64,000 nucleotides of DNA from Verrucomicrobiia bacterium (GCA_049968335.1 JBMFQZ010000006.1:78961-142960), one strand, 5' to 3'; counted from the stretch's first letter, positions 10,919 through 54,916 are shown. Made by a program: numbers and translations. The notes: generated from the letters alone by a model not told the origin.

Positions 10919-11091
10919 TCAGACAAACCAAACGTAAAACTGATTAATGAAGCTATTGACGCGACAACAAAGAAGAATAATTCTTTTAATAATATTTTTA
11001 CTGATAGTTGGGTGGGTTGTGAAGAATGTTGTATCAACAACAAGCGCTAAAACAGCGCCGATTTCACAATCGCCTCAATAAAGATTGGGTT

Positions 11092-11529
11092 ATGCAAAAG
11101 ACGACTTTTGAAGATGAGATTGAAAAAATAGTAGAAAAAGACAAACGATATAGTAAGGACGCTTATTACTTTGTCCGGGAAGCCCTTGAATTTACGCAAC
11201 AGAAACTTGGCAAAAAATCGGCTATTGGAGAAGAACGGCATATCACCGGGCAACAACTGCTTGAAGGCATCCGCGACTACGCCCTTTCTCAATTCGGTCC
11301 GATGACCTTGACCGTGTTTGAAGAATGGGGAATACATTCCTGCGAAGATTTTGGCGAGATAGTTTTTAATATGGTTGACGCGATGCTGCTTGCCAAGACC
11401 GAGAACGATACAAGAGAGGATTTTAAAAATGTTTACGACTTTTACGAAGTTTTCCAGAAACCATTTTTGCCACCTTCAAAAGCAATCAAACCAAAGCCTG
11501 GAAAAAGTCCGCGCGAAAAAACCCTCTGA
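11092..11529 (+). CDS. Conserved hypothetical protein, resembles the Minf_1886 family
   Basis: The strings YSKDAYYFVREALEFT....HITGQQLLEGIRDYALSQFGPMTLTVFEEWGI..CEDFGEIVFNMV match this family from memory only. The start was set to the ATG at 11092. Confidence 0.6.
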   Translation: MQKTTFEDEIEKIVEKDKRYSKDAYYFVREALEFTQQKLGKKSAIGEERHITGQQLLEGIRDYALSQFGPMTLTVFEEWGIHSCEDFGEIVFNMVDAMLLAKTENDTREDFKNVYDFYEVFQKPFLPPSKAIKPKPGKSPREKTL

Positions 11530-11619
11530 TTGATATAAACAATCCAGAGCGCTACAACTTGCCAGTTGAATTTTTAACTCCGGTTTTCGTCAAATTTAGA
11601 TAATAGAAAAACCCGGATT

Positions 11620-14313: not shown

Positions 14314-14459
14314 ATCGTCGGTGAAATAGGAAAAATTGCGTTCATAGAAGGAAATTATATTGCCAAAATATTTTTGGTGGGCTTTTCCAAAACACGGATT
14401 ATTGTTAATACTTTCAGAAATTTACCCGAAAATGTGATTTTGCCAGGTGTTCTTATGGT

Positions 14460-15740: not shown

Positions 15741-17123
15741 TCAATTTTTTATCTTTTGAGAAAGTGGAATGAGGAGTTCAAATCTTGTTCCGGTTGCGGA
15801 GGTGGATTTTAATTGAAGCGTGGCGCCTAAGTGGCTGGCAAGATGTTTTGATATTGCAAGTCCGATTCCGCTGCCGCCCGGTTTTGTTGAATGACAGGGG
15901 GAGAATAGATTTTTTAAAACTTTTTCGGGAATTCCGCAGCCTTCATCTATGACCTCGCAAACAAGCGAACCATTGTTTACAGAGATTGTCAGTTTTACAG
16001 ATTTCCCAGAGGGAGTTGCGTGGACGGCGTTTTCAATTAGATTAGTTAAGATCAAGCAGACAAGATTTGCGACACGATTGGAGAGGTCTGCGTTTCCATT
16101 AGATTCAATAATCAGGTTAATTCCCTTTTCTTTCGCTAACAGCGCGGTTTTGTTTTGAATCATCTCGCGCAATTCAGGAAGAGTGATTTCATATTCTATT
16201 GCGCCGCTCTCTTCTTTCAGCAGATTGACTACTTCGTTTATCATTGATTTGATGCGATTAATGGATTTGACGGCGCTTTGAAAGTCGGTTGTGTCGCCGT
16301 TTAATCCGGCTTTATCGGCGGCAAACAGTTCAAGTCCTGTTAGCGGGCTTTTTAGACCGTGAATAAGGTGCGCGGCAACAGCGCCTATGGCAGAAGCGCG
16401 GGCTGCCATTGCCAGTTCTTGGTTTGCGCGCCGCAGGTCTTCGGTTCTCTGTTCTAATTTGTAAAAGGCGTAACCGACTCCTAATATAATCAAAACCGAC
16501 CCTATTCCGAACGCAACAAGCGCTTGCAGATTTAAATTATTTTCTAAAATGGCGAATTGGCTTGCAATCCCCGACCCTTCAATAACAAACTGCGCCACCG
16601 CGGCAAGATTAGTATCGCTTCTGCCGTGCAATGGAATATTCACAACCAGCAGAGACTGCGCGTTAATCTTTCCTTTATAAGAATCTGGCAAATAATAAAA
16701 GAGTTCGTTCAATCCAATCTCTTTATAAAAACGGGCATTTGGTTTTAATGTTTTTAAAAGGTTCAACTCTTTTTCATCAAGTTTTCCCTCCTTAACATTT
16801 ACCGGCAGCGCTGTGATAAAACCGCCATCGGCGTCATAGAGCCGGACCGCGATAACGCCGCGGAGGTTTGAAGCCCGCAAAATCAAGGTCAGCTGTTCTG
16901 ATGGATCATTGATATCAACTTGCTGGTCGGTTGAACTGTCCCTCAATAAACAGATTGCGGAATATAGGATTTCCGCGTCCCGATTTATTATCTGTGCTCG
17001 AATTGCGTTGCCGAGTTTTAACCTTGCAAGAAATACCGTTGCGCCAAGCACCGCCACCGAGAGCAATATTGCCAGTAGCGGCGTTAATCGTTTGAAAGTC
17101 TCTTTTTTAAACAACGACTTCAT
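15741..17123 (-). CDS. Sensor histidine kinase (no cognate response regulator adjacent)
   Basis: It has two TM segments, an H box AAHLIHGLKSPLTGL, an N box LTNLIENAVHAT and G boxes DEGCGIP / GGSGIGLAISKHL. Confidence 0.85.
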   Translation of the reverse strand: MKSLFKKETFKRLTPLLAILLSVAVLGATVFLARLKLGNAIRAQIINRDAEILYSAICLLRDSSTDQQVDINDPSEQLTLILRASNLRGVIAVRLYDADGGFITALPVNVKEGKLDEKELNLLKTLKPNARFYKEIGLNELFYYLPDSYKGKINAQSLLVVNIPLHGRSDTNLAAVAQFVIEGSGIASQFAILENNLNLQALVAFGIGSVLIILGVGYAFYKLEQRTEDLRRANQELAMAARASAIGAVAAHLIHGLKSPLTGLELFAADKAGLNGDTTDFQSAVKSINRIKSMINEVVNLLKEESGAIEYEITLPELREMIQNKTALLAKEKGINLIIESNGNADLSNRVANLVCLILTNLIENAVHATPSGKSVKLTISVNNGSLVCEVIDEGCGIPEKVLKNLFSPCHSTKPGGSGIGLAISKHLASHLGATLQLKSTSATGTRFELLIPLSQKIKN

Positions 17124-34174: not shown

Positions 34175-34287
34175 CTGAGTTTCAATGACTTTATCAAAAT
34201 GGATTGGAAACAGATGGTTTTTGAATTATTGAATGAATAACAGCGCCGTACAGGTAGGGGCAAAGAGAATATTTTCAGTTGTTTTCC

Positions 34288-34511
34288 TGAATCATTAGCA
34301 TTGAACTTGGTATTTGATTTTAAAACCGATTAAAATTTAACGCTGTTTAACTGTATGAACTCAATAACCTAATACCAATCGGCTTGAACCCTGTTGGGGT
34401 TGAGTGATGGTTGTTTACTGTTTTTCAGTCCACCTATTTCATAGGTGGCTACTAATGTTAAACCCCTTCGTGGTCTATTTTAATCAATGAGTTGTTGGTT
34501 ATAAAATAATT
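34288..34511 (+). repeat. Intergenic repeat family B, copy 1 (~220 bp, hairpin-rich)
   Basis: TGAATCATTAGCATTGAACTTGGTATTTGATTTTAAAACCGATTAAAAT ... CCACCTATTTCATAGGTGGCTACTAAT ... GAGTTGTTGGTTATAAAATAAT is collinear with 54699-54916. Confidence 0.8.
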
Positions 34512-34677
34512 AGCCTTTAATGCTTTAAAATTAAGCAATAAATACGTACCTGCTGCAAATATGTATTATATATTTAATTTCATCAAAATTCATTCGTCTT
34601 TGTTGACCTGGATTCAGATAAGAAACGGGAATTTATGGATTGAATAAAACATCGCTCTTGTGCAATCTAACGATTGT

Positions 34678-37600
34678 ATGAACATATTCAAAATGAACGG
34701 CAAATTTGCGAAGGTTGTCAATATTGTTGTCTTAAATGCTTTTATTTTTTCTGCATTTTCTGCAATTTCGCAGGAGATAAATAACGGGCTGGTGACAGTC
34801 CGCGCTGTAAAGAAGGGGAATTCATTTTCTGGTTTTGATGTATTAAAAGGGAGCACGAATATAGCGATTATAAGGTTTAGTTCGGAGACGGTTGGTTTGA
34901 CTGTCACAAAATGCAGCACAGTACGGGGTGGAGATGCGATTGAATTTTCAGGCTTTCAGGCGCGCAGCGGAGCAGGTGTTGTATTTGGAAAAGAGGATTT
35001 TGTCCGCGTCAGGCTTATTCGCAACGATCCTTATCCGGAGATAGCGTTTGGCATAACTATAGCGGAGTTTGACAGCGCGAAGTGGCAAACGGTGGTGGGG
35101 AAAGAGCCGTTTCATTTTCTTGCGTTATATTTGAAGGATGCCGAAACGTGGCATCATCGCGGCTGGTTAAACGCAACGCCGCTTGTTGATCCATTTCCAT
35201 TATTGCTTGACCGTCATGCCGGCACGCCAGAAATCTCCGCCTATCATTATAACAGGAACTGGAGTTACACAGTGCCGCTTGGGGCTCATCCGATACCGGT
35301 AATTGGTCTGTGGTCTGCAAGCAAGGCGCATTACGTTGGATATGAATTTCAAACAACCCGTCTTGAAAATAATTCTGAGCGCGACATTGCGACCGGGTAT
35401 CGCTGGATTGGCGATGAGAGCGGAAGTCCTGATTCAAAACAGTTTGTTGCGCTTGTTTATCCCTATGGCGGACAGGGGTATCAACAACTTGTTCTTCCGG
35501 AAACTGGGTCGCGATTAAATTCAAAATGCCGCCTGTTATGGAGTTTAAACCTGCCATCAACTGATGATCCGAATCGTTTTACGTTATCGGTTATCTGGGG
35601 CAAAACGATGGATAAACTGCCGCGGGTTCCGGCGGTGGCGGATGTTGACTGGATACCGGGAGGGATTCGGTTAAAGGATTTTCAAGGTCCGCCGCGCGGC
35701 GGTTTAATTGCCGGTGTTGAGCCGCCGTTTCAGGTTCAGGGAACGAGGTTGATTTCAGGCTGGACCTGGCATAATGAAAGCCCGACTGCCGCCGCAGCAA
35801 AGCAAAAAGATTCACAGAGAATCGCGGCTCTTAAAAACATTGCGTCGGAATTGATGAAATACGCAAAGAGGTTTCAGATCAATGGAGAGGAGTGTCTGTT
35901 CTGGGAAAAACCGCTTGAAGGAGAGTGGACTGAACAATGGGGCGGAAAACCTGTAACGACATTGCACAACGCAAACGGTTTTGCCGCCGCAAGGGTTTTT
36001 CTTGGTTTATACCGGGACGCGGGGATGAAGGAGTATTTGCCTGTAGTTGATGGGGTGTTGAACTGGGCAAAATATATTGAATGGACGCGAAACGAGTTTG
36101 CCGATGTCCCTTCTTCGCCATTTGCGATTGGCGGCACGTTGAGCGCCTCGTTTTGTCTGGAATATTATAAAACATTTAAAGATAGTCCCGACGATGAGCA
36201 TCGCAAACGGGCAAGTCTGGCGCTGGAACTTGCGCGCGTCTTTACCTATAGATATCTGGCAATCTGGCTTTCGGACAACAACCGGTTTGACAATCTTGAT
36301 TCTTCGTTTTTATGGGAGCCGAACAGCGGTAGAGACTGGACTGGTGCTGCCTGCGCAAACGAGGTCTTCTGGAATCTGGACACGCTTGCCCAAACGGCTG
36401 TCCATACCGGCGACCCTATCTTGATGTGGGCGCTGCAGGGCTCGTTAGATAGATGGCATCAACTTTATCAGGATGTTGTTAAAAATAGTCTTTTAGAGTA
36501 TCAAGCGCGAGATATGACAGAGGGTTACGGACTTTATGCCGGGAATGTTTACGGGGTTGGAAAACGCGCGCCATACGGATTTGCTTCGCCGCTTGTGATG
36601 ACCGAGCCGGTTGGCGATTCTTTTATCCGTGTCCTTGCAGGTGAAAAAGCGGCGCTTGCGTTTAAAAAAGGAAAACAGCAGGTCAACATCTCGCAATACA
36701 AATATAAACAGGAGGGGAACTTTGCCTTTACGGTTCAATCTGAACGCGGGGTGTTTGACCTATCTTTGACATCGCCTTATTGCGATATTAGCGAAAAATC
36801 TGTCAGCATTGCGCGCGAGGGGAAAAAGATTGTTTTGCAGCCGGGCTCTGATTTTATAAGACCGCCGCAAGCGTTATGGTCTTTGTATTTAAAGAACGTA
36901 AGAAATGGCGACAGAATTATAGTTGGTGAACCGGATGAGACGGCGCCGTCATTGCCAACAGAACCGCCGCTTGCCTATTCAAGCGCTCAAAAACAACCGT
37001 TGTCTAATTATGAAACCGTAAATGGTTTTGGACTGGTTCAACTTCCTTATGACAGCGCTCCTGATTTTAGCTGGGAGAATCCGCAGGGCTGGGCTGGAAT
37101 GCCGCGCGGCAGAATCTGGGTCTTTGGAGTGCCATTTAATATTGAATATTCAAATGACCGTTGTGTGTTGAGCCGTCCCGCGAAGCTGTCGCGTCAGATT
37201 AAGAATGCCGATTTTGTTTATCTATTATACAGCGAGGGCGAAGGCGAGGTTCCGTCGTTGGTTTATTCTGATGGCGCAAAGGAACTGGTTGACACTTCAA
37301 GCGAGGCAATTGCATTCAAGGCTCACCCGCCGATTTTTAAAGGCAGACTGTTTATCGGGAAGGTCGCGGTTAAAAAAGGCAAGTCAATCCAGTCTATTGA
37401 TCCGGCTAAGCGAATGGTCTGGGCTATGACGGTTCAAACATTATCCGACATACCGGCGGAAGATGCGGCACGAGTTAACCTTGCTTTAACCAAAGCGGCT
37501 GAAGAATGGAAAATCCAGAGGGCGCAGGAGTTGATTATGAGCGAACTTTCTGAAAAGGTTAAAACCGTGTCAGAAGGTAAAATAGCGATTCTTCCGCCAA

Positions 37601-38256
37601 GTCCGGGCGGCGCCGCATTTACATTTTTGCAGAAGATTGGTCTGGTTGAGAAGTCTATGGTTCTGAACAACCAGAGGCTTATTGACGGTTCAGTTTTCAA
37701 TCCGCAAAAGGTTTCTGCGGCAGTCTATCTTGATGGCGAGGATTATGTTCATACGGTTAGAAATACCGCCGATGGGGCGAACGCCGTTGAACAATTTGTT
37801 AAAGGAGGCGGCACGCTTGTTCTGCTTGCCTCGCAGCCATGGCCGATGTTTTACGCCACAGGCGGCGGCGGCAGGCGGAGCGAGGCGCTCACCGGGAAAC
37901 TTGGACTGTCGTTGTCTATGGCAGTTGAAGGTTTGCCATCAGAAAAATTGACAATCAAGATTAATACCCAGCAAAATATTATCAGATGCAAAAACGCGCA
38001 ATTCGGGTATCCAGAGGGGGACGGGAGGTTGCGGGCGATTTTAAGAAACCGAATACCAAAGGAGGCAAAATATACTCCGATTGCAACGGTGGTTGGAGAG
38101 TCGGGCAAGGATTACGGCGATGCCGCAGGTTTAATTGAATTTCCTAACGGTGGCAGGGTTCTATATATTGCCAGCGTGTTGCAACTTGACCCGATTAACG
38201 GTTTTGAAATTCGCCGCAGCGTAGCGGAATATTTGATAAAACTGAGCGGTAAATAA
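34678..38256 (+). CDS. Large secreted hypothetical protein (~1190 aa)
   Basis: This is an uninterrupted ORF with a signal peptide (MNGKFAKVVNIVVLNAFIFSAFSAISQE). Its last 76 codons are duplicated at 45835-46064. Confidence 0.75.
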   Translation: MNIFKMNGKFAKVVNIVVLNAFIFSAFSAISQEINNGLVTVRAVKKGNSFSGFDVLKGSTNIAIIRFSSETVGLTVTKCSTVRGGDAIEFSGFQARSGAGVVFGKEDFVRVRLIRNDPYPEIAFGITIAEFDSAKWQTVVGKEPFHFLALYLKDAETWHHRGWLNATPLVDPFPLLLDRHAGTPEISAYHYNRNWSYTVPLGAHPIPVIGLWSASKAHYVGYEFQTTRLENNSERDIATGYRWIGDESGSPDSKQFVALVYPYGGQGYQQLVLPETGSRLNSKCRLLWSLNLPSTDDPNRFTLSVIWGKTMDKLPRVPAVADVDWIPGGIRLKDFQGPPRGGLIAGVEPPFQVQGTRLISGWTWHNESPTAAAAKQKDSQRIAALKNIASELMKYAKRFQINGEECLFWEKPLEGEWTEQWGGKPVTTLHNANGFAAARVFLGLYRDAGMKEYLPVVDGVLNWAKYIEWTRNEFADVPSSPFAIGGTLSASFCLEYYKTFKDSPDDEHRKRASLALELARVFTYRYLAIWLSDNNRFDNLDSSFLWEPNSGRDWTGAACANEVFWNLDTLAQTAVHTGDPILMWALQGSLDRWHQLYQDVVKNSLLEYQARDMTEGYGLYAGNVYGVGKRAPYGFASPLVMTEPVGDSFIRVLAGEKAALAFKKGKQQVNISQYKYKQEGNFAFTVQSERGVFDLSLTSPYCDISEKSVSIAREGKKIVLQPGSDFIRPPQALWSLYLKNVRNGDRIIVGEPDETAPSLPTEPPLAYSSAQKQPLSNYETVNGFGLVQLPYDSAPDFSWENPQGWAGMPRGRIWVFGVPFNIEYSNDRCVLSRPAKLSRQIKNADFVYLLYSEGEGEVPSLVYSDGAKELVDTSSEAIAFKAHPPIFKGRLFIGKVAVKKGKSIQSIDPAKRMVWAMTVQTLSDIPAEDAARVNLALTKAAEEWKIQRAQELIMSELSEKVKTVSEGKIAILPPSPGGAAFTFLQKIGLVEKSMVLNNQRLIDGSVFNPQKVSAAVYLDGEDYVHTVRNTADGANAVEQFVKGGGTLVLLASQPWPMFYATGGGGRRSEALTGKLGLSLSMAVEGLPSEKLTIKINTQQNIIRCKNAQFGYPEGDGRLRAILRNRIPKEAKYTPIATVVGESGKDYGDAAGLIEFPNGGRVLYIASVLQLDPINGFEIRRSVAEYLIKLSGK

Positions 38257-38322
38257 TTTATTGATTAATCCAGTGGCGTTCTTTTGTCGCGGTAAAAAGA
38301 CGCGCTGCCGTCGAGCATCACC
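38027..38322 (+). repeat. Left copy of the ~296-bp direct repeat bracketing the insertion
   Basis: Positions 38027-38219 are identical to 45835-46027. Similarity with scattered substitutions continues to ~38322/46130. Confidence 0.95.
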
Positions 38323-38363
38323 GCTACGGCTCGATGGAAAAGTTTTGGGAAACGAGCCTGCAT
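38265..38363 (-). pseudogene. Chimeric 32-codon ORF: junction ATG fused to a decayed copy of the prepilin-like gene tail
   Basis: The hand translation is [32 protein letters not shown]. The last 18 residues match the C-terminus of the 46073 gene ([17 protein letters not shown]). Confidence 0.6.
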
Positions 38364-38450
38364 TTTTCACACACTCCGCGCCTTTTCCAGCCGCGCCCGC
38401 ACCAGCCCTACCACCGCCTCATACACCGCCTCCCGCTCACCTGGCGTCAA
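38361..38450 (-). repeat. Copy 3 of the methyltransferase gene 3' end (mosaic fragment)
   Basis: It encodes LTPGEREAVYEAVVGLVRARLEKARSV*. Positions 38361-38406 are identical to 39082-39127, and 38410-38438 are identical to 40984-41012. Confidence 0.9.
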
Positions 38451-38485
38451 ATGTAAAGTTGAAACGGAGGGATACCTCGAGAATT

Positions 38486-39091
38486 TCATTTTCGGAAATA
38501 GGCATCAAGGGACTCACGCAGACTTCGCAGAGCATCGATGGCGTTGTCGTAGTGACTGAGCTTATATTTGCCATATTCCCATTCCTCGAGTAGAAACAGA
38601 TGTTCGCGATTGCGCCAGTCCCATAAATCGTCAAGGGCCTTTTTTAAATCATCGGAAATCATACCGTTTTTGACCATAGCGGCAGTTCGCTGTTTATAAC
38701 CCGTGTTCTTCCCGGAGATATTTCGTGCTACATCTTTGGTGATACTCTCACAGAGAGTACCGACAAGGCAAACACCCTCTTTGATAATCATTTCACGGGC
38801 AGTCCCCTTTAAGTCAATTCGATTCAACAACCATCGGTAAACATCACTAAGGATTAGTGCGTAGGAGATATTGCGTTGCAAGTTCTTGTCGTGGATAAAC
38901 CAATACTGATCCCGAAAGAACTTGGCCTTTCGCAAATATCCGCGAGGAAAACGGATTTTCAGAGGTCGATCACCCTCTCTTCCTAGAAGGTTTTCAATCT
39001 CTTGCAAATCGTTTCCGATCCGCTTAACCAGTGATTCGATTGACTTTTCCATGACGGTTTCGCACCACATCAGTTGTTCATCATTTTTCAC
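38486..39091 (-). CDS. Orphan helical protein, function unknown (possible HEPN-like effector)
   Basis: This 201-codon ORF ends the island operon. The GTG at 39091 overlaps the TGA of repeat copy 2, and alternative ATGs lie at 39070 and 39052. The WDWRNREHLF string is HEPN-like but is one residue short of Rx4-6H. Confidence 0.6.
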   Translation of the reverse strand: MKNDEQLMWCETVMEKSIESLVKRIGNDLQEIENLLGREGDRPLKIRFPRGYLRKAKFFRDQYWFIHDKNLQRNISYALILSDVYRWLLNRIDLKGTAREMIIKEGVCLVGTLCESITKDVARNISGKNTGYKQRTAAMVKNGMISDDLKKALDDLWDWRNREHLFLLEEWEYGKYKLSHYDNAIDALRSLRESLDAYFRK

Positions 39092-39205
39092 ACACTCCGC
39101 GCCTTTTCCAGCCGCGCCCGCACCAGCGTCACCACTGCCTCGTACAGTGCCTCACGTTGCCCTGGCCGCCGTTCGTACCACAGTGAAACACCAGACGTTC
39201 GAAGC
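39082..39205 (-). repeat. Copy 2 of the methyltransferase gene 3' end (diverged fragment)
   Basis: It encodes ...PGQREALYEAVVTLVRARLEKARSV* with no upstream ORF body. It lies between the OLD-type gene and the 201-aa ORF. Confidence 0.85.
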
Positions 39206-39262
39206 GAGGGTGCCCGGAAGCATTGCCACCTAGCAAGAGAGAGTGAAGTTAGGGATATCATT

Positions 39263-40930
39263 CTAACTTGCCAAGGCCTTCAGTAAGGCGGACACCTTGC
39301 TTTTGAAGTCCTTGATCTTTTCGTCTGCGACCTTACCCTGTTGTACGGCCAAGAGAACCTCGGCTGCTTTGCGCCATCGTTCCCCACTGGTTTGAATTCC
39401 GAGAAAATCCTCCAAGTTGTTTGGCAGCTTGTAGACATCCTTTGTGCAATCGTTCTTGGCCTTCTGAATGAGATTGTTAAGCTTGTCCTGCTTTTCTTTT
39501 TCGCTACCGGTCTTGTTCGCATCCTTGTCATGCAAGACAGCATGATCAATTCGGAACTCGCCCAAAAGGTTCATGAAGCGGTGGATGTTGTATTTTCCGA
39601 GTGTTTCTAAAACAAACACCCCATTGGCGTTAGAAGAAAGTTGCCCGGTCTTGAGCAGGTAGTTGATCAACACCTGTTCCGAAAGCCCTTCAACGATGAG
39701 AACGGCGTTTGCGAAGAAGAGGCTGCTTCGTTCGGGATTCAGCCACAGAAAATGGCGCACTGCTTCCAGTTCCGCCGAACCCGCCTGCACGCCGAGAATT
39801 TCCGCGATTTGCTGGTTGTCCTCAAAGATTTCCTTCAAACGGACCTTTTTGATTTGGGCAACTTCGGTCTTGCCGGCTACTCGCCGCACACGAACCAAAT
39901 CCGCGAGGTCATCGGTGTTGTAGCTGACGAACTGGGGCGAGTGCGAAGCGGCAATGACCTGACGGCCCGGTTTAGCTGCGAGTTGGCGCAAACTGGTGTC
40001 GAGCACGTCTTGTTGCGGCGGATGCAGGAACGCCTCGGGCTCTTCAAACAGTAAAAGCTCCATTTCCGGCGAGAACTCCTTTTTCTCCGACTTGGGCTTT
40101 GACGCGGTGTAGCCCGCGGCGATCCGAATCAGCGTGAAGATCAGATGCCGCTGCAAGCCATGACCAAAGGCGTCAGGGCTCATCTCGGTATTCAAGGCGC
40201 TGTCGGTCAGGGTGTAGCGAATCAGGTTCTTGATGATGTCATCAACTTGTGGCGGATTGATGCCTAGATTAAAGGAGACGCCCCACTCTTTGATTTGATC
40301 AGTGATTTTCGCCTCGAGGTCCGAAAGCGAGCGTTTGTCAGGCGTCTCCTCGTTTTTTATGTTCCAGCTAAACTTAGCGAAGTCTTCGGTCAGGGCGGTA
40401 AAGGCGTTACTCGAAGTGATGACAGGCTTTAGGATGTCGTTAATTAGATCGCGCAGCGCGCTCGGCCCTGTCAGTTTGGTGTGCTCTTCCAATCGGCTGA
40501 CAGCCGGGATGTAAATCACATTGCCAAGTTTGCCCTGAGCCACGTTTTTCCAGCCGTAGAACAAATTCTGCGACAAGCTGCCATTTTCATAACCGAAAAA
40601 ACCGGCCTTCGCTTTATCGGACGGCCACAGCCACTTGCGAACGCGGCAACGGTTTTGGCCGATCAGGTATTCTTTTTTTATGTCTGCCGCCTCTTCTTGA
40701 GACAATTCGTATTCGAGTTCCACCCAGCTTTCCTGGTCATTGGTTTGGAACTTCGGGAAATCCCGGTCTTGGTCGAACTTCAGATCTTTCTCGTAAACGG
40801 TTCGTAGAGCATCGAGGACGTTGCTCTTGCCGGAATTGTTCGGCCCGATAAGCAGCGAATAGTCGCCGAAGCGGATTGTCTGCTCAGCAATCGAACGATA
40901 GTTGTGGATTTTCAGCTCTCTGATTTTCAT
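39263..40930 (-). CDS. OLD-family ATP-dependent nuclease (ABC-type ATPase + Toprim)
   Basis: It has MKIRELKIHNYRSI, Walker A GPNNSGKSN, Walker B LLLFEEPEAFLHP and ASHSP. Toprim follows with AVLIVEGLSEQVLI and LHDKD. A GGAG lies upstream of the ATG at 40930, 10 nt after the methyltransferase stop. Confidence 0.85.
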   Translation of the reverse strand: MKIRELKIHNYRSIAEQTIRFGDYSLLIGPNNSGKSNVLDALRTVYEKDLKFDQDRDFPKFQTNDQESWVELEYELSQEEAADIKKEYLIGQNRCRVRKWLWPSDKAKAGFFGYENGSLSQNLFYGWKNVAQGKLGNVIYIPAVSRLEEHTKLTGPSALRDLINDILKPVITSSNAFTALTEDFAKFSWNIKNEETPDKRSLSDLEAKITDQIKEWGVSFNLGINPPQVDDIIKNLIRYTLTDSALNTEMSPDAFGHGLQRHLIFTLIRIAAGYTASKPKSEKKEFSPEMELLLFEEPEAFLHPPQQDVLDTSLRQLAAKPGRQVIAASHSPQFVSYNTDDLADLVRVRRVAGKTEVAQIKKVRLKEIFEDNQQIAEILGVQAGSAELEAVRHFLWLNPERSSLFFANAVLIVEGLSEQVLINYLLKTGQLSSNANGVFVLETLGKYNIHRFMNLLGEFRIDHAVLHDKDANKTGSEKEKQDKLNNLIQKAKNDCTKDVYKLPNNLEDFLGIQTSGERWRKAAEVLLAVQQGKVADEKIKDFKSKVSALLKALAS

Positions 40931-40940
40931 GTTTTGCTCC

Positions 40941-41075
40941 TCACACGCTTTGGGCTTTTTCGAGGCGGGCGCGGACCAGCCCGACCACCGCCTCATACAC
41001 CGCCTCCCGCTCCCCGGCCGTCAAGCCCAACACATCAAACACCACTTCGTCCAAGGCGAAGCGGTCAGGTGATGC
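40941..41075 (-). repeat. Copy 1 (functional) of the triplicated methyltransferase 3' end
   Basis: It encodes ...FDVLGLTAGEREAVYEAVVGLVRARLEKAQSV* and is the reference for the fragments at 39082-39205 and 38361-38450. Confidence 0.9.
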
Positions 41076-44000
41076 TTGTCGCACTCGGTCTAAAGAAGCG
41101 GCAGAAGGGATGATATGTTCGTAGGGGTGGTTCACATGCGAACAGTGCAGCTCTTTGCACAGCGGAAATCCCAGCTCTTCAAAAACTGTGCGAACAACGC
41201 GCTTGGATAAAGCTTCAAACGCATCAATTAGGCGACTTATTGTTTGCAGGGTGAGATCGGTTGGGTCAATAACCGGGAATAGACCCACATCCGGGCCATT
41301 CACTGAAACTGCGCCAAGCCCCCAAGGCACGTTCCCGATGAGCTCATTCAATCCCGCCGCCACCGTTGAGTTGCAGAAAGCACCGATCACGGCCTTGTGT
41401 TCTTTTGTGTGGAAAATGATTTTATAGAACTTTTGCCCATAAACCCTGCCCAACACGATAGGAACAAAAAAACGAGCGCCTACCATTCGTGGGTATAGCA
41501 AATCACCGAGTTGGCGTGAGTTGCCGGTTGACTTAACTCCGAAGAACACCACGCCAGGGCTATTCTCTGTAAGGCGCATGGTCGAAAGCGAATCAATGCT
41601 GTCAACGAAAGGCACGGAGGGGAATCTCGGCCCGATATTGTTGCCGTGGATGTACCCCTCGATTCTCGCAAATAATCGCAAGGGTTTTAATTTTGGCAAC
41701 ACGTGCGTCATCAGGATGTCCGGAGCGCGCAGGTATTTGCCGCCCCATTTGTTGGCTTCGTAACGAGCGGTTTTGATGAACGGGGTGCGCGGTTTCTTGC
41801 CGGCCGACGCGGGTTCGTCGTCGTCTTCCTCGCGGGCGAGGCCTTCCTCGAACAGGTCGCGTTGGGGTCGGACGCAGATTCGCCAGCGGTCGGTGCTCTG
41901 GCGTTCGGCGGCGGACTCCAGCCTCTTGAAGGTGGCGGCGTCGAGCACGTCCTCGAACGGGACTTTGAACATAACAAAGCGGGCGGTCTGGTCGAGGCCG
42001 CTCTCGCGGCGGTCGTCGGGCGGTGCAAGCAGGGCGATGATCGTGTTGACATCAGCCTGGGCAAAGGAGCGTTTCCGTTCGTTGTCGAGGATGAACTTGA
42101 CGTGGCTGTGTTTGAGGAGGAACTCCTGCAGGTCTGCGCCGTAGCCGACATCGAGCCAGGAGTTGGAGGTGATGAAGCAGAAGCTTCCGCGCTCAGTCAG
42201 CAACGCCAGCCCGTGCAGGTAGAAGTAGATGTAGAGGTCGCTCTGACCGTCCAGTTTTCGATAATTGGCAGAGCTCGGCTTATACCGGAAAAACTTGGGC
42301 CACGCAGCAGCAACGGACTGAGCAAGTTTTGCTTTATAATCCGCCTTTTGTTCCTTCCATCGCGGGGCGTCTTCGCCGCCGTAGTCCTCAGGATTTTTGT
42401 CCGGCGGGGCGATCTTCTCTTTTCGGACATAGGGCGGGTTGCCGATGACGATGTCGAAGCCGGCCTTGTCGCCCTCGAAGATTTCCACAAAGGCGATGTC
42501 CCAGACGAACGGGACTTGTTGGGTGGTGCGCAGCGCCTGCAGGGCTTGTTCGATGCGGTTGAGTTCGGCTTGGCGCTCGGCGCGTTCGGCGCGCCATCCT
42601 TCTTCGAGGCGGAGACGTTCCTGTTTGGCCTGGCCGGGGGCGATGCCGGCCAGTTCGCCCTGTTCCACGCGCGATTCGATTTGATGGGTGAGCGCGGCGA
42701 TGGATTTCTGGAGGGCGAGGCGTTTGTGCGTGAGGATGTCGTGGAAGATGTCGAGTTCTTCCTTTTTGAGGTCGGCTTCGCGGAGGCCGGATTCGCCTTG
42801 GTAGAAGCGGAGTTTTTTGCCTTTGAGCTGGGTGAGTCGGCCTTTGAGTGAGGCAGGAATGTCGAGGTGGTCGCGGTGGAGACCGAGGTTGATGCCGCCG
42901 ATTTCCTGCACGAGGCTGTCGCCGCAGCGGACTTTGAAGGAGAGATTGGGCAGGAGCGGGCGAAATTTTAGTTCCGCAGCTTGGAGCTCGGTTTCTACGA
43001 CCAGTTGCAGCCAGAGGCGCAGTTCGGTGACGTGGATTGCCCAGTCCATCACGTCCACGCCGTAGAGTTGTTCGCCGATAATGCGGCGGCGGCGTTCGTA
43101 GGGGGTTTCTTCGAGGCCGAGTTGGGCGTTGGCGCGGGCTTGGAGGTCGTCGAGCACCAGCAACATGCCGACGAGGAACGAGCCGGAGCCGCAAGCGGGG
43201 TCGCAGACGGTGGTTTCGCGCAGGAGACGGTTGAGGTCGGGCCAGAGGTTTTGGGCAGCGAGCGCGCGGTCGGCGGCTTCTTTGTTGGCGGGGTCGTAAG
43301 CGAAGACGGCGTCGTAGAGCAGCGGTTTTTTGTCCTGGCCAAGCCGGTTGGCGAGGGTGTCGGTAAGGCTGAGGCGGCACATCAGGTCAATTTCGACGCG
43401 CGGGGTGTAGAAGATGCCGGCCGAGCCGCGCAGGTCGTCTTCGGTGAGTCCCTCGAAGGTGATGTTGACGAGGGATTCATAGACTTTGCCGATCATTTCG
43501 GGGTCAACGGCGACCTCGATGTCCAGCGGGGTAGATTCGGCGATGGTGAAGTTGTAGCGTTCGAGGAAGCCGGGGCTGCTTCCGTCAAAGGAATCGAAGA
43601 GGGTGGTAAAAAACTCGTCCGGCAGTTTCGCGTCGTAGGCGTCGTCGAGTTTGTTTTGGGTGAACAAGCCGCCGTTGAGAAACGGGGCTTGAGCGAGGGC
43701 GTGGCGGATGGGGTCGGGGAAATGGCGGTGTCCGCCGTGGAACTTGTTGTTGAACGCCTCGAAGAACAGGACGGAGAGCCAGCGGTCGAAAAAGGTGTCC
43801 TTGGGCTGGTCTGAGTTTTTGTAGGCGCGCCAGAATTCGGCGATGAAGTTCGGATTGTTGACGAGCCAGCGCTTGCGCTGGATGAAGTAAAGGAACATCA
43901 GGCGGTTGAGCAGTTGCAGGGCGTAATCGTGCGCCCAGATTTTGTCGCGGGAGGCATTGGTCAGGTGGGCTTGTAGGTTGGCAAAGACCTTCTTGTAGTC

Positions 44001-44537
44001 GTCGAAGAACCGTTTGGTGACTGCTTCGACATCGAAGGCTCGGTTGAGTTTGTCGGTTAGGGTGGTGATGAGTGGTTCGCCTTGTTCAAGTTCATCGAGG
44101 CTGAAGGCGAGTTCGCCCAGTCGCTCGATAGTGGTGCGGGCGGGAGAGCCGACCTCGTAGGGGAGGGTGCGGAGTTCGATCTTTTCGTCGGGCCGCTGAC
44201 GCGCCCAGGTGAAGGCGGCTTGTCGCTGGTCGGAGGTCACATAGCAGAGGAGATGTTCGGCATGGAGGGGTTTGAGGGCACGCTGAACCACGCGGCGGGC
44301 TGTGACACCGGGAAATTTCTTCTCTGGCCAATCTATGCGATATACCGGAAGACCCGAAAGTTGTGCCACCGGATGGAGGGTGAGGAGCCCGCTTACCGGC
44401 GTTCCGACTTCGAGAGTTCGCGACGTCATACCCCGCGGCGCACCCCAGTTGAGGGTCTGGCAGAAAAGCTCCCCCAGGTTTTCCGCCAAATTGCCGCCGG
44501 TCAATTGGGCTTCGATTTGTTGAAGAATCGTGTTCAT
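40941..44537 (-). CDS. Eco57I/PglX-like gamma-class N6-adenine DNA methyltransferase with a C-terminal specificity region (1198 aa)
   Basis: Motifs are GIFYTPR, motif I VCDPACGSGSFLVGML, LYGVDVMDWAIHVTELRLWL, motif IV FDIVIGNPPYVRKE and KWGGKYLRAPDI. The N-terminal region has LLNRLMFLYFIQRKRWL...FLNGGLF. I saw no clear PD-(D/E)xK motif. Confidence 0.85.
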   Translation of the reverse strand: MNTILQQIEAQLTGGNLAENLGELFCQTLNWGAPRGMTSRTLEVGTPVSGLLTLHPVAQLSGLPVYRIDWPEKKFPGVTARRVVQRALKPLHAEHLLCYVTSDQRQAAFTWARQRPDEKIELRTLPYEVGSPARTTIERLGELAFSLDELEQGEPLITTLTDKLNRAFDVEAVTKRFFDDYKKVFANLQAHLTNASRDKIWAHDYALQLLNRLMFLYFIQRKRWLVNNPNFIAEFWRAYKNSDQPKDTFFDRWLSVLFFEAFNNKFHGGHRHFPDPIRHALAQAPFLNGGLFTQNKLDDAYDAKLPDEFFTTLFDSFDGSSPGFLERYNFTIAESTPLDIEVAVDPEMIGKVYESLVNITFEGLTEDDLRGSAGIFYTPRVEIDLMCRLSLTDTLANRLGQDKKPLLYDAVFAYDPANKEAADRALAAQNLWPDLNRLLRETTVCDPACGSGSFLVGMLLVLDDLQARANAQLGLEETPYERRRRIIGEQLYGVDVMDWAIHVTELRLWLQLVVETELQAAELKFRPLLPNLSFKVRCGDSLVQEIGGINLGLHRDHLDIPASLKGRLTQLKGKKLRFYQGESGLREADLKKEELDIFHDILTHKRLALQKSIAALTHQIESRVEQGELAGIAPGQAKQERLRLEEGWRAERAERQAELNRIEQALQALRTTQQVPFVWDIAFVEIFEGDKAGFDIVIGNPPYVRKEKIAPPDKNPEDYGGEDAPRWKEQKADYKAKLAQSVAAAWPKFFRYKPSSANYRKLDGQSDLYIYFYLHGLALLTERGSFCFITSNSWLDVGYGADLQEFLLKHSHVKFILDNERKRSFAQADVNTIIALLAPPDDRRESGLDQTARFVMFKVPFEDVLDAATFKRLESAAERQSTDRWRICVRPQRDLFEEGLAREEDDDEPASAGKKPRTPFIKTARYEANKWGGKYLRAPDILMTHVLPKLKPLRLFARIEGYIHGNNIGPRFPSVPFVDSIDSLSTMRLTENSPGVVFFGVKSTGNSRQLGDLLYPRMVGARFFVPIVLGRVYGQKFYKIIFHTKEHKAVIGAFCNSTVAAGLNELIGNVPWGLGAVSVNGPDVGLFPVIDPTDLTLQTISRLIDAFEALSKRVVRTVFEELGFPLCKELHCSHVNHPYEHIIPSAASLDRVRQASPDRFALDEVVFDVLGLTAGEREAVYEAVVGLVRARLEKAQSV

Positions 44538-45271
44538 GGCCGTTCCTCAGTCATTGCTGTGGACGAAAAACTCGAAGATGCCGCCACTAATCCCATTGAG
44601 CAAATGATACGGGGTTCGGAGCGACTGGTATCGTCTTCGTCTGTCACTTCACAGAGGTTTTCATCTATTGCCCGGCGCAATACAAGTTCAAGCAGCGCTT
44701 CGTCGGTGATGCCCAGGCGCATCTGCCTGTTGACGGCATCTTGCGCGGCGCGCTTGAGCGGGTATCGCCAGATCAGGTTGAGCACAGAGTCGATCTGTTT
44801 CAAGGTTTCTGGGGTGAAGAGCGTGGGGTTAACCTGAAACCGCTCGCGGTAGCGTTTGAGACGATCGTAGAGTTTCCGGCGCATGCTTCGGAGCGAGCCT
44901 AGCTGGCCGCCTAAGGCAGTCTGCTCCTCGGTGGCAATTTCTACGCAACGGGCGACAAGGTTGTGATGGTTCTCTGCCCGCGGCAGCGGCGGGGTGTTCG
45001 GGGCGCACGCGGCGGCGCGGAAGATGGCGGATATAAACTTGGAAACCAGGTTACCCCGCTCATCCACTCGCACAAGCGCAACGGCGCCGTCTGGGTAGCG
45101 CAAGTAAGTAAGCACCACGGGCGGGTTGTTGACGTGCTCCTTGTCCCGATGATCGTAGGATTCGGTCGGGCGCTTATTCTGATTGGTTTGCGTTTTTCTC
45201 TTGCGTGCAGTCAATTCACACCACCCGCTCCTTGTTGGCGTAAACAAGTTCGTATTCCTTCTTGGCGTCAA
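44534..45271 (-). CDS. Hypothetical protein translationally coupled to the methyltransferase (start uncertain)
   Basis: The G+C-rich ORF stops in an ATGA overlap with the methyltransferase start (44534-44537). Its first ~19 codons overlap a 48-codon ORF in another frame. A TTG at 45214 sits 1 nt after that ORF's TGA. Confidence 0.55.
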   Translation of the reverse strand: MTPRRNTNLFTPTRSGWCELTARKRKTQTNQNKRPTESYDHRDKEHVNNPPVVLTYLRYPDGAVALVRVDERGNLVSKFISAIFRAAACAPNTPPLPRAENHHNLVARCVEIATEEQTALGGQLGSLRSMRRKLYDRLKRYRERFQVNPTLFTPETLKQIDSVLNLIWRYPLKRAAQDAVNRQMRLGITDEALLELVLRRAIDENLCEVTDEDDTSRSEPRIICSMGLVAASSSFSSTAMTEERP

Positions 45272-45362
45272 AGAGGATCACCTTGGAGTCCTCCGGTAAG
45301 GGCTTGCCTTCCCTGAGGAGACTTACAATACGTTCAATTTCTTGCTCTGAAAGTTTACGCAT
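45216..45362 (-). CDS. 48-aa ORF resembling the extreme N-terminus of Mod-type adenine methyltransferases (possible gene remnant)
   Basis: The hand translation is MRKLSEQEIERIVSLLREGKPLPEDSKVILFDAKKEYELVYANKERVV*. The LL..GK.LP......LF...KEYELVYAGKE leader is remembered from type III-like Mod proteins. It is absent from the supplied track because it is under 60 aa. Confidence 0.4.
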   Translation of the reverse strand: MRKLSEQEIERIVSLLREGKPLPEDSKVILFDAKKEYELVYANKERVV

Positions 45363-45402
45363 TTCAATTACCTCGCTTTTCCTTTCTTGCCTGTGTTCAT
45401 TC

Positions 45403-45519
45403 CTAATCCTGGATGATGGACACGATAGAGGCGTTCTGGGTCTGCTTCTGAATTTCCAGGGCTGTCTCCTTCAGGAAGAAATGCTGCTCCTCGGTAATCT
45501 CAGTGGTTGTCTTTCTCAT
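45403..45519 (-). CDS. Small (38 aa) ribbon-helix-helix-like protein, putative operon regulator
   Basis: The sequence is MRKTTTEITEEQHFFLKETALEIQKQTQNASIVSIIQD. A GGGAG lies 9 nt upstream of the ATG at 45519. It is the first ORF of the island operon, and the fold assignment is tentative. Confidence 0.35.
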   Translation of the reverse strand: MRKTTTEITEEQHFFLKETALEIQKQTQNASIVSIIQD

Positions 45520-45834
45520 AATCGTTTTACTCCCGGTTTTTAAAGCACGGTTTCTCGGTCTAACTATATCGTTATAATTTTGAATATAGCCACATAAAGT
45601 CAAGGTGAATTTTGCCGCCTCTCTCACCTTTTGTCGATACCCTTAATCTCGCCTATTAGTAGCGGGGCAATGTCTCTGTCTCCGTTCCTGCCAAGCGAAT
45701 TCTCCGGGCTGGGCGGCTCGGATCAAAGCCCTTATATCTACTTTGGAGGCGCAAGGACTTTTTATTTCTACGAGGAGACATTCTCCGTTTGCTTTCCGAT
45801 TATCTTCCGTAGTGGAACCACTTGAGTGGCGCAC

Positions 45835-46064
45835 GGTTGCGGGCGATTTTAAGAAACCGAATACCAAAGGAGGCAAAATATACTCCGATTGCAACGGTGG
45901 TTGGAGAGTCGGGCAAGGATTACGGCGATGCCGCAGGTTTAATTGAATTTCCTAACGGTGGCAGGGTTCTATATATTGCCAGCGTGTTGCAACTTGACCC
46001 GATTAACGGTTTTGAAATTCGCCGCAGTATAGCGGAATATCTGATAAAACTGAGCGGTAAATAA
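45835..46064 (+). pseudogene. Headless duplicate of the last 76 codons of the 34678..38256 gene
   Basis: RLRAILRNRIPKEAKYTPIATVVGESGKDYGDAAGLIEFPNGGRVLYIASVLQLDPINGFEIRRSIAEYLIKLSGK* differs from the intact gene end by one residue (V to I). The ORF-track entry 45822..46064 only adds 4 unrelated codons. Confidence 0.9.
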
Positions 46065-46130
46065 TTTATTGATTAATCCATTGGCGTTCTTTTGTCGCGG
46101 TAGAAATTTGCGCTGCCGTCCAGCATCGTT
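45835..46130 (+). repeat. Right copy of the ~296-bp direct repeat bracketing the insertion
   Basis: See 38027-38322; the offset is 7808 bp. Confidence 0.95.
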
Positions 46131-46786
46131 CTATTTCTGCCGCCCGTATGCGGAGTTCTGCCGCGAATATTCTGCGGCAAAGTTGCGATTGTTGATGGAA
46201 AATAGACATCTACTGTAAGTTCAACTTCCGATGCAGAGGCTGGCGGCGGCGCGTTCGGGTTATTTGCCAGCCTGAGCGAGGCTACACAATCCTCTATTGT
46301 GCGTCCCCAGAAGTTGTCTGGTGGCACTGGGTCATCTTTCCTATCAAACCGCCACATCCAGTATCTTACCATGACGGATTTTGGACTATTGTCGCCAATG
46401 TCGGCTTCCTGAGAGGTTTGGATTATTGAAGATAGACCTTTTTTCTCAACTGCAGGACAGTTCCATATATTTGATTGATTGATGTAGTGTCGCAGAACTA
46501 CCGCAGCCCAGCCGGCGCGCGGATCGCTTTGGGGCCAGGTTGTCCATGGTTTATATCCGCCAGGAAGGCTCATTTTTAAATCGCGTCTATCAGGAAACCT
46601 GCCTTGATTCTCATCCAGATACATAAACAAAGCGCTTGACTGTTGTTTGAGATTTGAAAGACAGGAAATTCTATATGCCGCGTTTTTTGACCTTATTACC
46701 GCAGGCAACAAAATGGATGCAAGGATTCCAATTATCCCGATTACGACGAGCAATTCAATTAAGGTAAAACCGCTCCTTAATTGCAT
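46073..46786 (-). CDS. Prepilin-type N-terminal cleavage/methylation domain protein (DUF1559-like, H-X9-DG tail)
   Basis: It has [25 protein letters not shown] after the ATG at 46786, and a C-terminal [13 protein letters not shown] (H-X9-DG). Confidence 0.85.
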
Positions 46787-46920
46787 ATGAGAAAAAACAG
46801 AATAGAAGCAGTTGGGGCGCATCAATTTATTACGAGTATAACGCAATCCGGATGAACAGAGACTTGTGATATTCATCCGCTTGCTTGAAAAAGCAACTTC
46901 ATCTATAAATATTTTGATTT

Positions 46921-48342
46921 TCAATCTGCCACTTCTAATTTAATTATTCTGTCTGGATTATTCATAGCAAGATAGAGATTGCCGTCTGGAGCGGTCACTA
47001 CAGAGCGAATTCTGCCGATTCCTTTAAATAAGATTTCTGAATGCGCTACGCGATGTGCCTCAATTTCTAATCTCCATAATTCCTCTTTTGCCAGTGAGGC
47101 AACAAAGAGATTGTTTTTCCATTTTGGAAACCTGTAGCCTCTGTAAAAGCCGATGCCGCAAACCGCAATTGACGGCGTCCAGTAAAATACTGGTTGTTCA
47201 AGACCTTCTTTATGGGTTAAATGAGTGATTGGGGAACCGTCGTAATTCATTCCATAAGTAATAATAGGCCAGCCGTAATTTTTGCCTTTTTCAATTAAAT
47301 TAAGTTCATCGCCGCCGCGCGGCCCGTGTTCTGTCTCCCACAGTTCGCCGGTCAGCGGGTTAAAATCAAGACCTTGCGGATTTCTATGTCCGTAGCTCCA
47401 GATTGATGGTATTGCGTTAGGAACATTTACAAATGGATTGTCCGGGGGCACTCTGCCGTCATCAAACAGTCGATGCACTTTGCCGTTCGGTCTCGTTATG
47501 TCTTGCGCATGCTGCATAGTGCCGCGTTCGCCGATTGAAAAGAAAACGTGACCATTATTGTCAAACACGATCCGCGAACCAAAGTGAATTCCGCCGGGAC
47601 GGTAAAATTCTGGCGATGCTCTAAAAATTGTTTGTTCATCTGTCCATTTGCCATCTTTAATATGACCGCGAACAATTACAGTCAGTCCGACGTTGTTTCC
47701 AAGATTATTCGTCCCGCGTTCAGAATATGAGAGGTAGACCCAACGGTTTGTTCTATAACCTGGGTGAAGCGCAACATCCATTAGACCACCCTGCCCTTCG
47801 GCGCGAACTTTCGGGGTGTTTTCAACCGGCGCCGAGATATTACCGTTTTTGTCAACAATTCGCAGCCGTCCGGCAAGTTCAGTTACAAGCATTTTATTAT
47901 CTTCATCTGGAAGAAAGGCGATTGCCCACGGGGTGGCAATGCCCTCGCATACTGTCCTTATCCTAAAATTGTGTTTTTCACTCTTAACGACCTGCTCTGC
48001 GGCTGGTTTGGGCGGTGGAGATTTTTTTAAAGCGGCTTGTGTCTCTTTTTCCCTTATGTAGATAACCATAGCGCGTATTTCCGATTCGCTAAGGGCGTTT
48101 TTCATCGGCGGCATTCCCTCTTCTTCTTTCCCGTCGCGGATAATTTTTGCAATATCTTCATCGCTTGAGCCATATTTCCATTTTCCGTCTATCAGGCTTT
48201 CTCCGGCGCCTCCCTCAAGATTTGCTCCGTGACAGCTGGCGCAATTGTCGGCATAGACGCGGGCGATGTCGCGGGCGGAAGCGCTGGTTGCCAGCGCGGT
48301 TGCGCAAAGAACTATTGCTATGTTTGTTCTGTTGAGAATCAT
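46921..48342 (-). CDS. PQQ-dependent sugar dehydrogenase (beta-propeller) fused to an N-terminal cytochrome c domain
   Basis: It has a signal peptide, CASCHG plus a distal Met (GMPPM), and soluble glucose/sorbosone dehydrogenase-like strings ([32 protein letters not shown]). Confidence 0.8.
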
Positions 48343-54620: not shown

Positions 54621-54698
54621 TCAAAAATCCAATTGAAAACTATTATACCACATAATAAAAAGATTAATAAAACCAGATTTTGAGGCTAAACATTTTTA

Positions 54699-54916
54699 TG
54701 AATCATTAGCATTGGACTTGGTATTTGATTTTAATACCGATTAAAATACAACGTTGTTTAACCGTACGAATCCAATGGTCTAAAATCAATCTTGCTCAAC
54801 CCCATTGGGGGTGAGTGATGGTTGGTCTTTCAAGTCCACCCACTTCGTAGGTGGCTACTAATATTAGGCCCCTTCGGGGTCTCTTCCAACCAGTGAGTTG
54901 TTGATTATAAAATAAT
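54699..54916 (+). repeat. Intergenic repeat family B, copy 2
   Basis: It is collinear with 34288-34511 and contains CCACCCACTTCGTAGGTGG and GGCCCCTTCGGGGTC hairpins. Confidence 0.8.

Follow-up and report, generated by a model that had tools for sequence, protein, structure and literature searches.

A 64,000-nt stretch of DNA from a Verrucomicrobiia bacterium (GCA_049968335.1 JBMFQZ010000006.1:78961-142960; hereafter the window, with positions counted from its first letter) carries about 7.6 kb of foreign DNA at 38220-45834, between the converging 3' ends of a gene for a large secreted protein (the big gene) and a prepilin-like gene. We assign this insert to the class known as 'insertion with long target duplication', already described by Kobayashi's group (PMC2853133). 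As cargo it brings defence genes of restriction type in an array that is mosaic and has partly decayed.

The insert is bracketed by a direct duplication. A repeat search of the window returned 38027-38319 and 45835-46127 as a direct repeat of 293 nt with 97% identity and an offset of 7808, and a column-by-column comparison divided it into two unequal parts. Positions 38027-38219 and 45835-46027 are identical throughout (193/193), whereas 38220-38322 and 46028-46130 agree at 92 of 103 positions, giving 0 differences in 193 proximal columns against 11 in 103 distal ones (Fisher p = 6e-6); beyond 38322/46130 there is a 5-nt indel, after which identity is about 50%. The whole block of 296 nt occurs only twice in the window. 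It takes in the final 76 codons and the stop of the big gene, a spacer of 8 nt and the final 18 codons of the prepilin-like gene that converges on it. The big gene owes its complete 3' end to the left copy and the prepilin-like gene to the right one, and each copy also holds a remnant of the other gene, namely an 18-codon prepilin tail at 38265-38322 in the left copy and a headless 76-codon big-gene fragment at 45835-46064 in the right. An original prediction, made from the sequence alone, had claimed this arrangement in all its parts: the 193 identical nucleotides, the offset of 7808, the similarity continuing to 38322/46130, the content of the block (a 76-codon end, a TAA stop, an 8-nt spacer and about 18 prepilin-like codons) and the completion of one host gene by each copy. 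Our comparison and open reading frame (ORF) calls bear it out.

That the segment was inserted is shown by two relatives in which the site is uninterrupted. Look-ups of window proteins by identical sequence had no match. A search with the big protein led to proteins P0001 (96% amino acid identity) and P0002 (81%), found respectively on contig L006 (about 93% nucleotide identity to the window) and on contig L007 (about 77%), from an NCBI Verrucomicrobiia metagenome-assembled genome (MAG). In L006 the gene order nusA, infB, rbfA, a DHH-domain gene, truB, ribF, big gene, spacer, prepilin-like gene and GSDH gene is identical to that of the window; the big gene (10001-13468) is separated by the 8-nt spacer from the prepilin-like gene (13477-14328, minus strand). 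BLASTN of the flanks found the window collinear with L006 at 92-94% on both sides of the insert, and the big gene itself is collinear with those of both L006 and L007, its homologues measuring 1155-1210 aa and having the same C-terminus. Positions 13239-13532 of L006 align with both repeat copies of the window, and L006 and L007 have a single copy each. Because two relatives have the uninterrupted site, the segment is a strain-specific insertion and not something that relatives always carry; the predicted insertion is real. Five further loci encoding big-protein homologues (L001-L005, 61-67% identity) were rejected as empty sites, since downstream synteny is lost in them.

The same relatives tell which parts of the repeat are native. 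Both 193-nt copies have the same 8 differences from L006 (185/193), which are shared derived sites, and this identity is normal or better than average for the window/L006 pair; both copies are native sequence. No tract of raised divergence was seen beside the island in the comparison of the window with L006. The distal 103 nt behave otherwise: the right copy (D) matches L006 at 101 of 103 positions and the left copy (D') at 94, so that differences unique to the left copy number 9 in these 103 nt and 0 in the proximal 193 (p = 6e-5). Of the codon changes in D', 5 are synonymous and 3 conservative. The big-gene tail has one Ile/Val change besides synonymous changes, with Val as the state in more distant big-protein homologues, and the prepilin tail has three synonymous changes together with Asn/Ser and Met/Leu. 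The left patch of about 103 nt is an orthologous gene-end region from another, related lineage, and in this the original prediction, which had derived the homology patch from a related but non-identical genome, is supported. The big gene takes its final 12 codons (38220-38256) from this foreign patch, and the homology of D' stops abruptly at codon -18 of the donor-lineage prepilin-like gene (38322). The 'decayed prepilin tail' of the prediction does exist as an 18-codon tail, but 'decayed' is too simple a word for it, since most of the changes that set it apart from the native tail are synonymous or conservative; and in-place decay cannot account for the left patch, because the equally useless 193-nt headless fragment is unchanged.

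Searches of the insert against Pfam, NCBIfam and PADLOC, together with an examination of its small ORFs, revealed no integrase or transposase and no remnant of one in any frame, and the insert lacks terminal inverted repeats, its two ends sharing no inverted exact match of more than 8 nt, a length equal to the shuffle mean. This agrees with what had been predicted. We found no tRNA or tmRNA target within about 37 kb and no tRNA or Rfam family in or near the insert; insert DNA had no match in plasmid or phage collections, a conserved methyltransferase gene end that it contains (the C block, see below) had none in viral contigs, and no viral relative of its OLD gene was found. The flanking identity block measures 193 nt with graded homology beyond it, as opposed to the short core attachment site of integrase islands, and the target duplication of 193 nt or more stands in contrast to the short one made by a transposon or insertion sequence. 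The insertion needed no element-encoded recombinase.

We hypothesize that this 'insertion with long target duplication' arose by one-ended homologous anchoring combined with an illegitimate or microhomology-primed join, a mechanism whose chances we take to be about even, and we infer the order of events and the enzymology as follows. A related lineage would earlier have hosted the array, and its orthologous gene-end region of about 103 nt would have arrived with the array when the foreign DNA entered between the converging 3' ends of the two core genes. The patch would then have acted as a homology anchor for a RecA-type crossover near 38219/38220, leaving a left junction where the chromosome would run in register into the foreign patch, while at the right junction (45834/45835) non-homologous island DNA would have met the chromosome at a point 193 nt upstream of that crossover. 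A join at that point would duplicate 193 nt of native sequence and so let both host genes keep a complete 3' end. The two junctions are of the type expected from homology-facilitated illegitimate recombination (HFIR), the left one passing in register from the native repeat (R) into D' at about 38219/38220 and the right one being without visible homology. The G+C mosaic and the truncated genes show that illegitimate joins have occurred repeatedly in the array, and we count in favour of the mechanism a pattern in which a gene end appears to travel with cargo, seen inside the island and in five other loci. However, several points weigh against it. Classical HFIR usually deletes recipient DNA and does not duplicate it. 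No microhomology is discernible at 45834/45835, where the island's original continuation is lost, and no donor lineage with D'-type sequence was found among the big-protein homologues. The synonymous bias in D' comes from 8 codons only, with an estimated p of about 0.04 if some 27% of random codon changes are assumed to be synonymous. Gene conversion between the repeats could yield the same picture, and the integrated arrangement is that of the contig assembly.

Among the alternatives, the Campbell-type single crossover put forward in the original prediction is possible, though we find it rather doubtful. A circle carrying the island and one gene-end copy of about 300 bp would recombine with the chromosomal copy, and the geometry fits this exactly: the repeats are direct, the left one being chromosome plus element and the right one element plus chromosome. 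The 193 identical nucleotides are ample for RecA-mediated excision and re-integration, and cargo arrays with repeated gene ends, as found in other loci, are expected from repeated circle insertion. However, with a foreign patch that is diverged by about 10%, one 193-nt copy should differ from the other at about 19 positions (patch divergence scaled by L007 distances), and 0 are seen, both copies being native-like. It follows that only about 103 nt are foreign, or that a Campbell event was followed by homogenisation, or that the circle was conspecific. The original prediction is thus supported in part, as to an insertion without a recombinase and with a foreign patch, while its crossover model has to be amended. 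The model can be kept if the identity came from a conspecific circle, excised via the same repeats, or from later homogenisation by gene conversion or mismatch repair; but this is an extra step, and the origin of the first duplication is left unexplained.

It is improbable, in our view, that the insert is the remnant of an integrase-mediated island, with an att site in the 3' end of the big gene, a carried replacement end and an integrase gene later deleted or acting in trans. Islands that target gene 3' ends and bring a replacement end are generally known to be common, and there are deletions and gene fragments at the right end of the insert, but neither an integrase or its remnant nor a tRNA or tmRNA target is present, the 193-nt identity with graded homology is unlike a short core site, and none of five related loci was seen to hold a related element bearing an integrase. 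We judge it quite improbable that an assembler ran together into one path a chromosome with the empty site and another molecule, or a strain variant, having the 193-nt block in common with it. The window does stem from a MAG contig, the exact repeat is longer than common k-mers and 150-nt reads, and the graph topology is the same for the integrated state and for an empty chromosome plus circle. On the other hand, a 7.8-kb circle is unlikely to be maintained if it has no replication gene, the big gene is completed by a foreign patch fused in register to native sequence, and such paths are normally decided by read pairs or long reads. The chances are very slim that all 296 nt are an in-place duplication of native DNA whose left distal part has since decayed or undergone conversion by a paralogous prepilin-like gene. 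Prepilin-like genes are, as is generally known, multi-copy in these phyla, and the left tail is non-functional. Yet the equally non-functional 193-nt headless copy has no change, the changes in the patch are mostly synonymous or conservative and also affect the big-gene tail, which no prepilin paralogue carries, and there is no other copy of the block in the window.

Table 1. Features of the insertion and its two host genes, in window coordinates.
Feature	Position	Strand	Remarks
Host secreted-protein (big) gene, complete	34660..38256	+	1198 codons from GTG; stop 38254-38256; 8-nt spacer after stop
R-left, native copy of the 193-nt repeat	38027..38219	+	Big-gene codons -76 to -13; 185/193 to L006
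D', foreign orthologous patch	38220..38322		Ends of a related big gene (12 codons) and, on the minus strand, of a related prepilin-like gene (18 codons), with the 8-nt spacer between
Junction segment	38323..38366	-	Contains the opening codons (GTGAAAAATG) of a second HEPN-like gene copy, now lost; limit of homology to orphan b and L010
Orphan methyltransferase 3' end a	38367..38462	-	31 codons and stop: STLHLTPGEREAVYEAVVGLVRARLEKARSV; D2 repeat family, tblastn match
HEPN-like protein gene, 201 aa	38486..39091	-	AF2 model, Foldseek, 72 homologues
Orphan methyltransferase 3' end b	39088..39215	-	Core 39088-39162 in frame (GQREALYEAVVTLVRARLEKARSV, then stop); frameshifted further upstream; stop overlaps GTG of HEPN-like gene
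OLD-family ABC-ATPase and TOPRIM nuclease gene	39263..40930	-	Pfam AAA_15, AAA_21, OLD-like_TOPRIM; PADLOC Old 1.9e-61
Eco57I-family N6-adenine DNA methyltransferase gene, intact, 1198 aa	40941..44537	-	Pfam Eco57I 1.3e-29, MmeI_Mtase; PADLOC REase_MTase_IIG, weak PglX
HKD(PLD)-SNF2 helicase-nuclease 3' fragment, last ~183 codons	44534..45127	-	Native ATGA overlap with methyltransferase start kept
Right end of insert	45128..45834	-	48-codon ORF 45216-45362, small ORF 45403-45518, non-coding DNA up to junction
R-right, second native 193-nt copy	45835..46027	+	Headless big-gene fragment, continuing to 46064
D, native distal part of block	46028..46130		Big-gene tail fragment, spacer and true end of prepilin-like gene; 101/103 to L006
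Host prepilin-like (N_methyl) gene, complete	46073..46924	-	Pfam N_methyl, NCBIfam prepilin domain; same 283-aa gene in L006

The identified genes of the insert all lie on the minus strand, and its centre is more G+C-rich than its surroundings, as had been claimed: the methyltransferase gene and the helicase fragment have a G+C content of 0.585, compared with 0.44-0.46 for the flanking DNA. G+C also varies within the insert, a mosaic with 0.513 in the OLD gene, 0.444 in the 201-aa gene and 0.56-0.60 in the orphan ends. The original prediction did not include the defence array character of the cargo, its nested orphan gene ends or the earlier description of long target duplication for such genes. 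The methyltransferase translation contains the DPACGSGSFL (S-adenosylmethionine-binding) and NPPY motifs. Its HKD-SNF2 partner is full length in loci L008, L009 and L014 and is also present in L015, where it is cut by the end of the locus; the fragment in the window shares 57% identity with residues 953-1135 of the 1138-aa L008 protein (BLASTP, E 5e-70). Since relatives pair the methyltransferase with the helicase-nuclease, the copy in the window is an orphan left from a two-gene restriction-like system. We rejected the label 'Type-2 BR' for it, a system that has a DUF1156 methyltransferase with DUF499 and DUF3780 (PMC12839542). Outside the window, the 190,593-bp source contig has the gene of another Eco57I-family methyltransferase (P0212, 1247 aa, 59% identical), which could be a recombination partner for C blocks.

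The ORF of the OLD-family gene reaches 40996, with Met23 at 40930 as the likely start. At the right end of the insert, the 48-codon ORF at 45216-45362 has a weak match to the N-termini of plasmid 'site-specific DNA-methyltransferase' proteins (tblastn E 1e-3) and is probably the 5' fragment of another methyltransferase gene, fused by deletion to the helicase 3' fragment. Apart from that match, these 700 or so nucleotides had no counterpart in any of the loci or proteins compared. The 201-aa protein had no match in Pfam, NCBIfam or PADLOC. We call it HEPN-like on the basis of an AF2 model (pLDDT 85) whose top Foldseek matches in the PDB are YutE and HEPN toxins; the likeness to HEPN toxins has a probability of 1.0 but E values of 2.5e-3 to 0.1 and TM scores of about 0.45-0.7. 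The protein has 72 homologues; its R160 and H164 are invariant and form RNREH, that is Rx3H, as compared with Rx4-6H in the HEPN motif. A homologue with 46% identity is found on a phage contig (L016, 2657-3298). It adjoins what we take by eye to be an HNH-type gene and lies upstream of a 704-aa ORF that presumably resembles a tail tape-measure gene.

The nested orphan gene ends repeat the end of the resident methyltransferase gene, which is conserved over nt 1-2823, variable over 2824-3480 (the recognition region) and conserved again over 3481-3597. We call this last conserved gene end of 117 nt (about 40 codons, 40941-41057 in the window) the C block. Three direct copies of the last 25-31 or so methyltransferase codons are present (38361-38445, 39082-39166 and 40935-41019; 78-87% identical); the last of them includes the real gene end (40941-41019), while orphans b and a bracket the HEPN-like gene and orphan a abuts the foreign patch. 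Orphan a differs from the resident end at 12 of 75 nt (10 synonymous codons and 1 non-synonymous) and orphan b at 20 of 75 (13 synonymous, 4 non-synonymous). Because the differences are almost all synonymous, both orphans are the ends of other, once-functional alleles. Several C-block orphans carry frameshifts or stops, so that we take most of them to be decaying fragments and reject the idea that they are expressed mini-proteins.

C-block orphans adjoin cargo genes in all six loci examined (the window, L008, L009, L010, L014 and L015), which belong to several phyla. They follow an Mrr_N gene in L008 (14219-14293) and stand before and after one in L009 (15873-15917 and 16483-16584). L014 has one orphan and a split methyltransferase (14517-14639 and 16226-16282), and L015 has two orphans (14697-14831 and 16501-16614) in a run of nine called genes or small ORFs between the methyltransferase and the helicase. 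The Pyrinomonas locus L010 has C-block orphans (9841-9960 and 10587-10694) and yet no methyltransferase of the Eco57I C-block family. In these five loci the cargo genes bordered by orphans are Mrr_N, DUF3644/PDC-S19, DUF5131, Peptidase_M78 and HEPN-like genes. The unit made of an orphan, the HEPN-like gene and a second orphan shares about 85% DNA identity between the window (38361-39215) and L010 (9850-10700), whose host, Pyrinomonas methylaliphatogenes (Acidobacteria), belongs to a different phylum; in L010 the unit sits amid type I restriction gene fragments and toxin-antitoxin pairs. A unit of DUF3644 and an orphan, with a 'MNQ..RQPD' junction, is common to L010 and L015.

Orphan ends of another methyltransferase type ('REIDxxVYRLYGLTAEEIKIVE') follow NYN and Schlafen/HATPase cargo genes in L015 (17403-17612 and 19080-19382), so that more than one kind of gene end marks cassette borders. 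A 45-codon ORF in L010 (7133-7270), which by eye we take to be the C-terminal end of a type I HsdM, precedes an MNT/HepT pair and presumably shows the pattern of gene end plus cargo in a type I locus. C blocks were also considered as attC-like recombination sites and rejected, since single-strand folds gave no common hairpin (z-scores -2.0 to 0.0), and no integron integrase (IntI) was seen in the gene calls or Pfam annotations of the loci examined.

The outer repeat, read on the minus strand, follows the same logic as the orphans: a full prepilin-like gene is followed by the array and then by an orphan prepilin end from another lineage. We tentatively propose, as an idea that we hold well short of likely, that the C block serves as a portable homology anchor, by which cassettes of defence genes are assembled into arrays without a recombinase. 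Each cargo gene would take a gene-end copy along with it, units like C block/HEPN-like gene/C block and DUF3644/C block would move between phyla into any locus having a C block, and the whole array would have been installed at the core site in like manner through the 103-nt patch.

Some further observations concern the DNA around the insert. In the 5' part of the prepilin-like gene (46695-46983) identity to L006 is 75-78%, as against 92-96% in the surrounding DNA. A direct repeat of about 230 nt, 80% identical and with apparent short hairpins, lies in two intergenic regions (34282-34510 and 54693-54916); it had no Rfam match. The place of its first copy, a little upstream of the big gene, is another variable spot, where L006 has the remnant of an AAA_15 ATPase gene and L007 an intact ATPase gene with a 155-aa gene.

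That restriction-type genes move by insertion with long target duplication is known, but the process is poorly understood. Here, with the empty site in hand and in a poorly studied phylum, restriction-type defence genes enter a core locus without a mobility gene and leave both neighbours intact. The mechanism of long target duplication finds a concrete clue in the foreign gene-end patch, which points to one-ended homology as the anchor. This anchor patch and the recurrent methyltransferase-end orphans are two modest additions to what is described of the class, and may point to a way of building defence arrays without a recombinase. Methyltransferase-end orphans at cargo borders in six loci of several phyla give a testable model for the growth of defence islands, in which orphan gene ends form a built-in historical record of successive acquisitions. 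If true, a portable C-block anchor would give defence genes a general means of accretion and spread, one that is like integrons but needs no enzyme.

Of the known systems that share features with the insert, BREX and BREX-related loci have auxiliary or 'backup' effectors in which OLD-ABC/TOPRIM and HEPN nucleases lie beside or within methyltransferase-helicase loci (PMC12839542). That paper catalogues associations, and repeated methyltransferase ends at cargo borders are not mentioned in the part of it drawn on; the methyltransferase of the window is of the Eco57I type with an HKD-SNF2 partner (PADLOC candidate C3a139), as against the DUF1156 type treated there. The insert also resembles Campbell-type or integrase islands in gene 3' ends, with their direct repeats, a carried replacement end and the native end displaced as a fragment. 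Unlike them it has no integrase, short core site or tRNA target, and its identity pattern is unfit for one simple crossover with a foreign patch.

C-terminal displacement arrays (rhs) were reportedly described by Jackson et al. in 2009. Such arrays are known from rhs, CDI and T6SS effector-immunity loci (Kirchberger et al. 2017, PMC5361080). As in them, a conserved body is followed by a variable 3' region and a conserved end, and then by orphan 3' ends, every one of which has a gene downstream of it; the orphans of the window differ by synonymous changes and hence come from other alleles. However, the ends are here those of a DNA methyltransferase, and the cargo consists of OLD, HEPN-like, Mrr_N, DUF3644/PDC-S19, NYN and Schlafen-like genes instead of toxin tips and immunity genes. 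For these analogous arrays of displaced ends, HFIR is the mechanism that has been proposed (PMC5361080, which cites de Vries & Wackernagel 2002, Prudhomme et al. 2002 and Meier & Wackernagel 2003). Like HFIR products, the insert has one in-register junction made through a short diverged anchor, one non-homologous junction and no encoded recombinase. Unlike in the events reported in that source, where recipient DNA is usually deleted, 193 nt have been duplicated in the window.

Nobusato and colleagues are said to have described insertion with long target duplication of restriction-modification genes in 2000 (Gene 259:99). According to Furuta, Abe & Kobayashi (2010, PMC2853133), such insertions concern restriction-modification genes, orphan methyltransferases included, without mobility genes and with repeats that often span stop codons. 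By the measures used there, the repeats of the window exceed 30 bp (193-296 nt) and both align to the single copy of the empty site, and the insert is below 20 kb (7.6-7.8 kb) and has no mobility gene. As to restriction and modification content, the methyltransferase is intact and the restriction partner (HKD-SNF2) is reduced to its last 183 codons, insertions of orphan methyltransferases having been reported too; as to repeats of native target sequence, the 193-nt part is native, while the adjoining 103 nt of the left copy are foreign. The window differs from the cases in that source by its long block (193-296 nt) across two converging stop codons, its truncated restriction partner and its host, an uncultivated Verrucomicrobiia MAG; the patch of about 103 nt from another lineage beside one copy is a feature of the window of which we found no mention in the part of the paper drawn on. 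As in that class, the direct repeats are far longer than transposon duplications and span a stop codon, and the target genes are intact.

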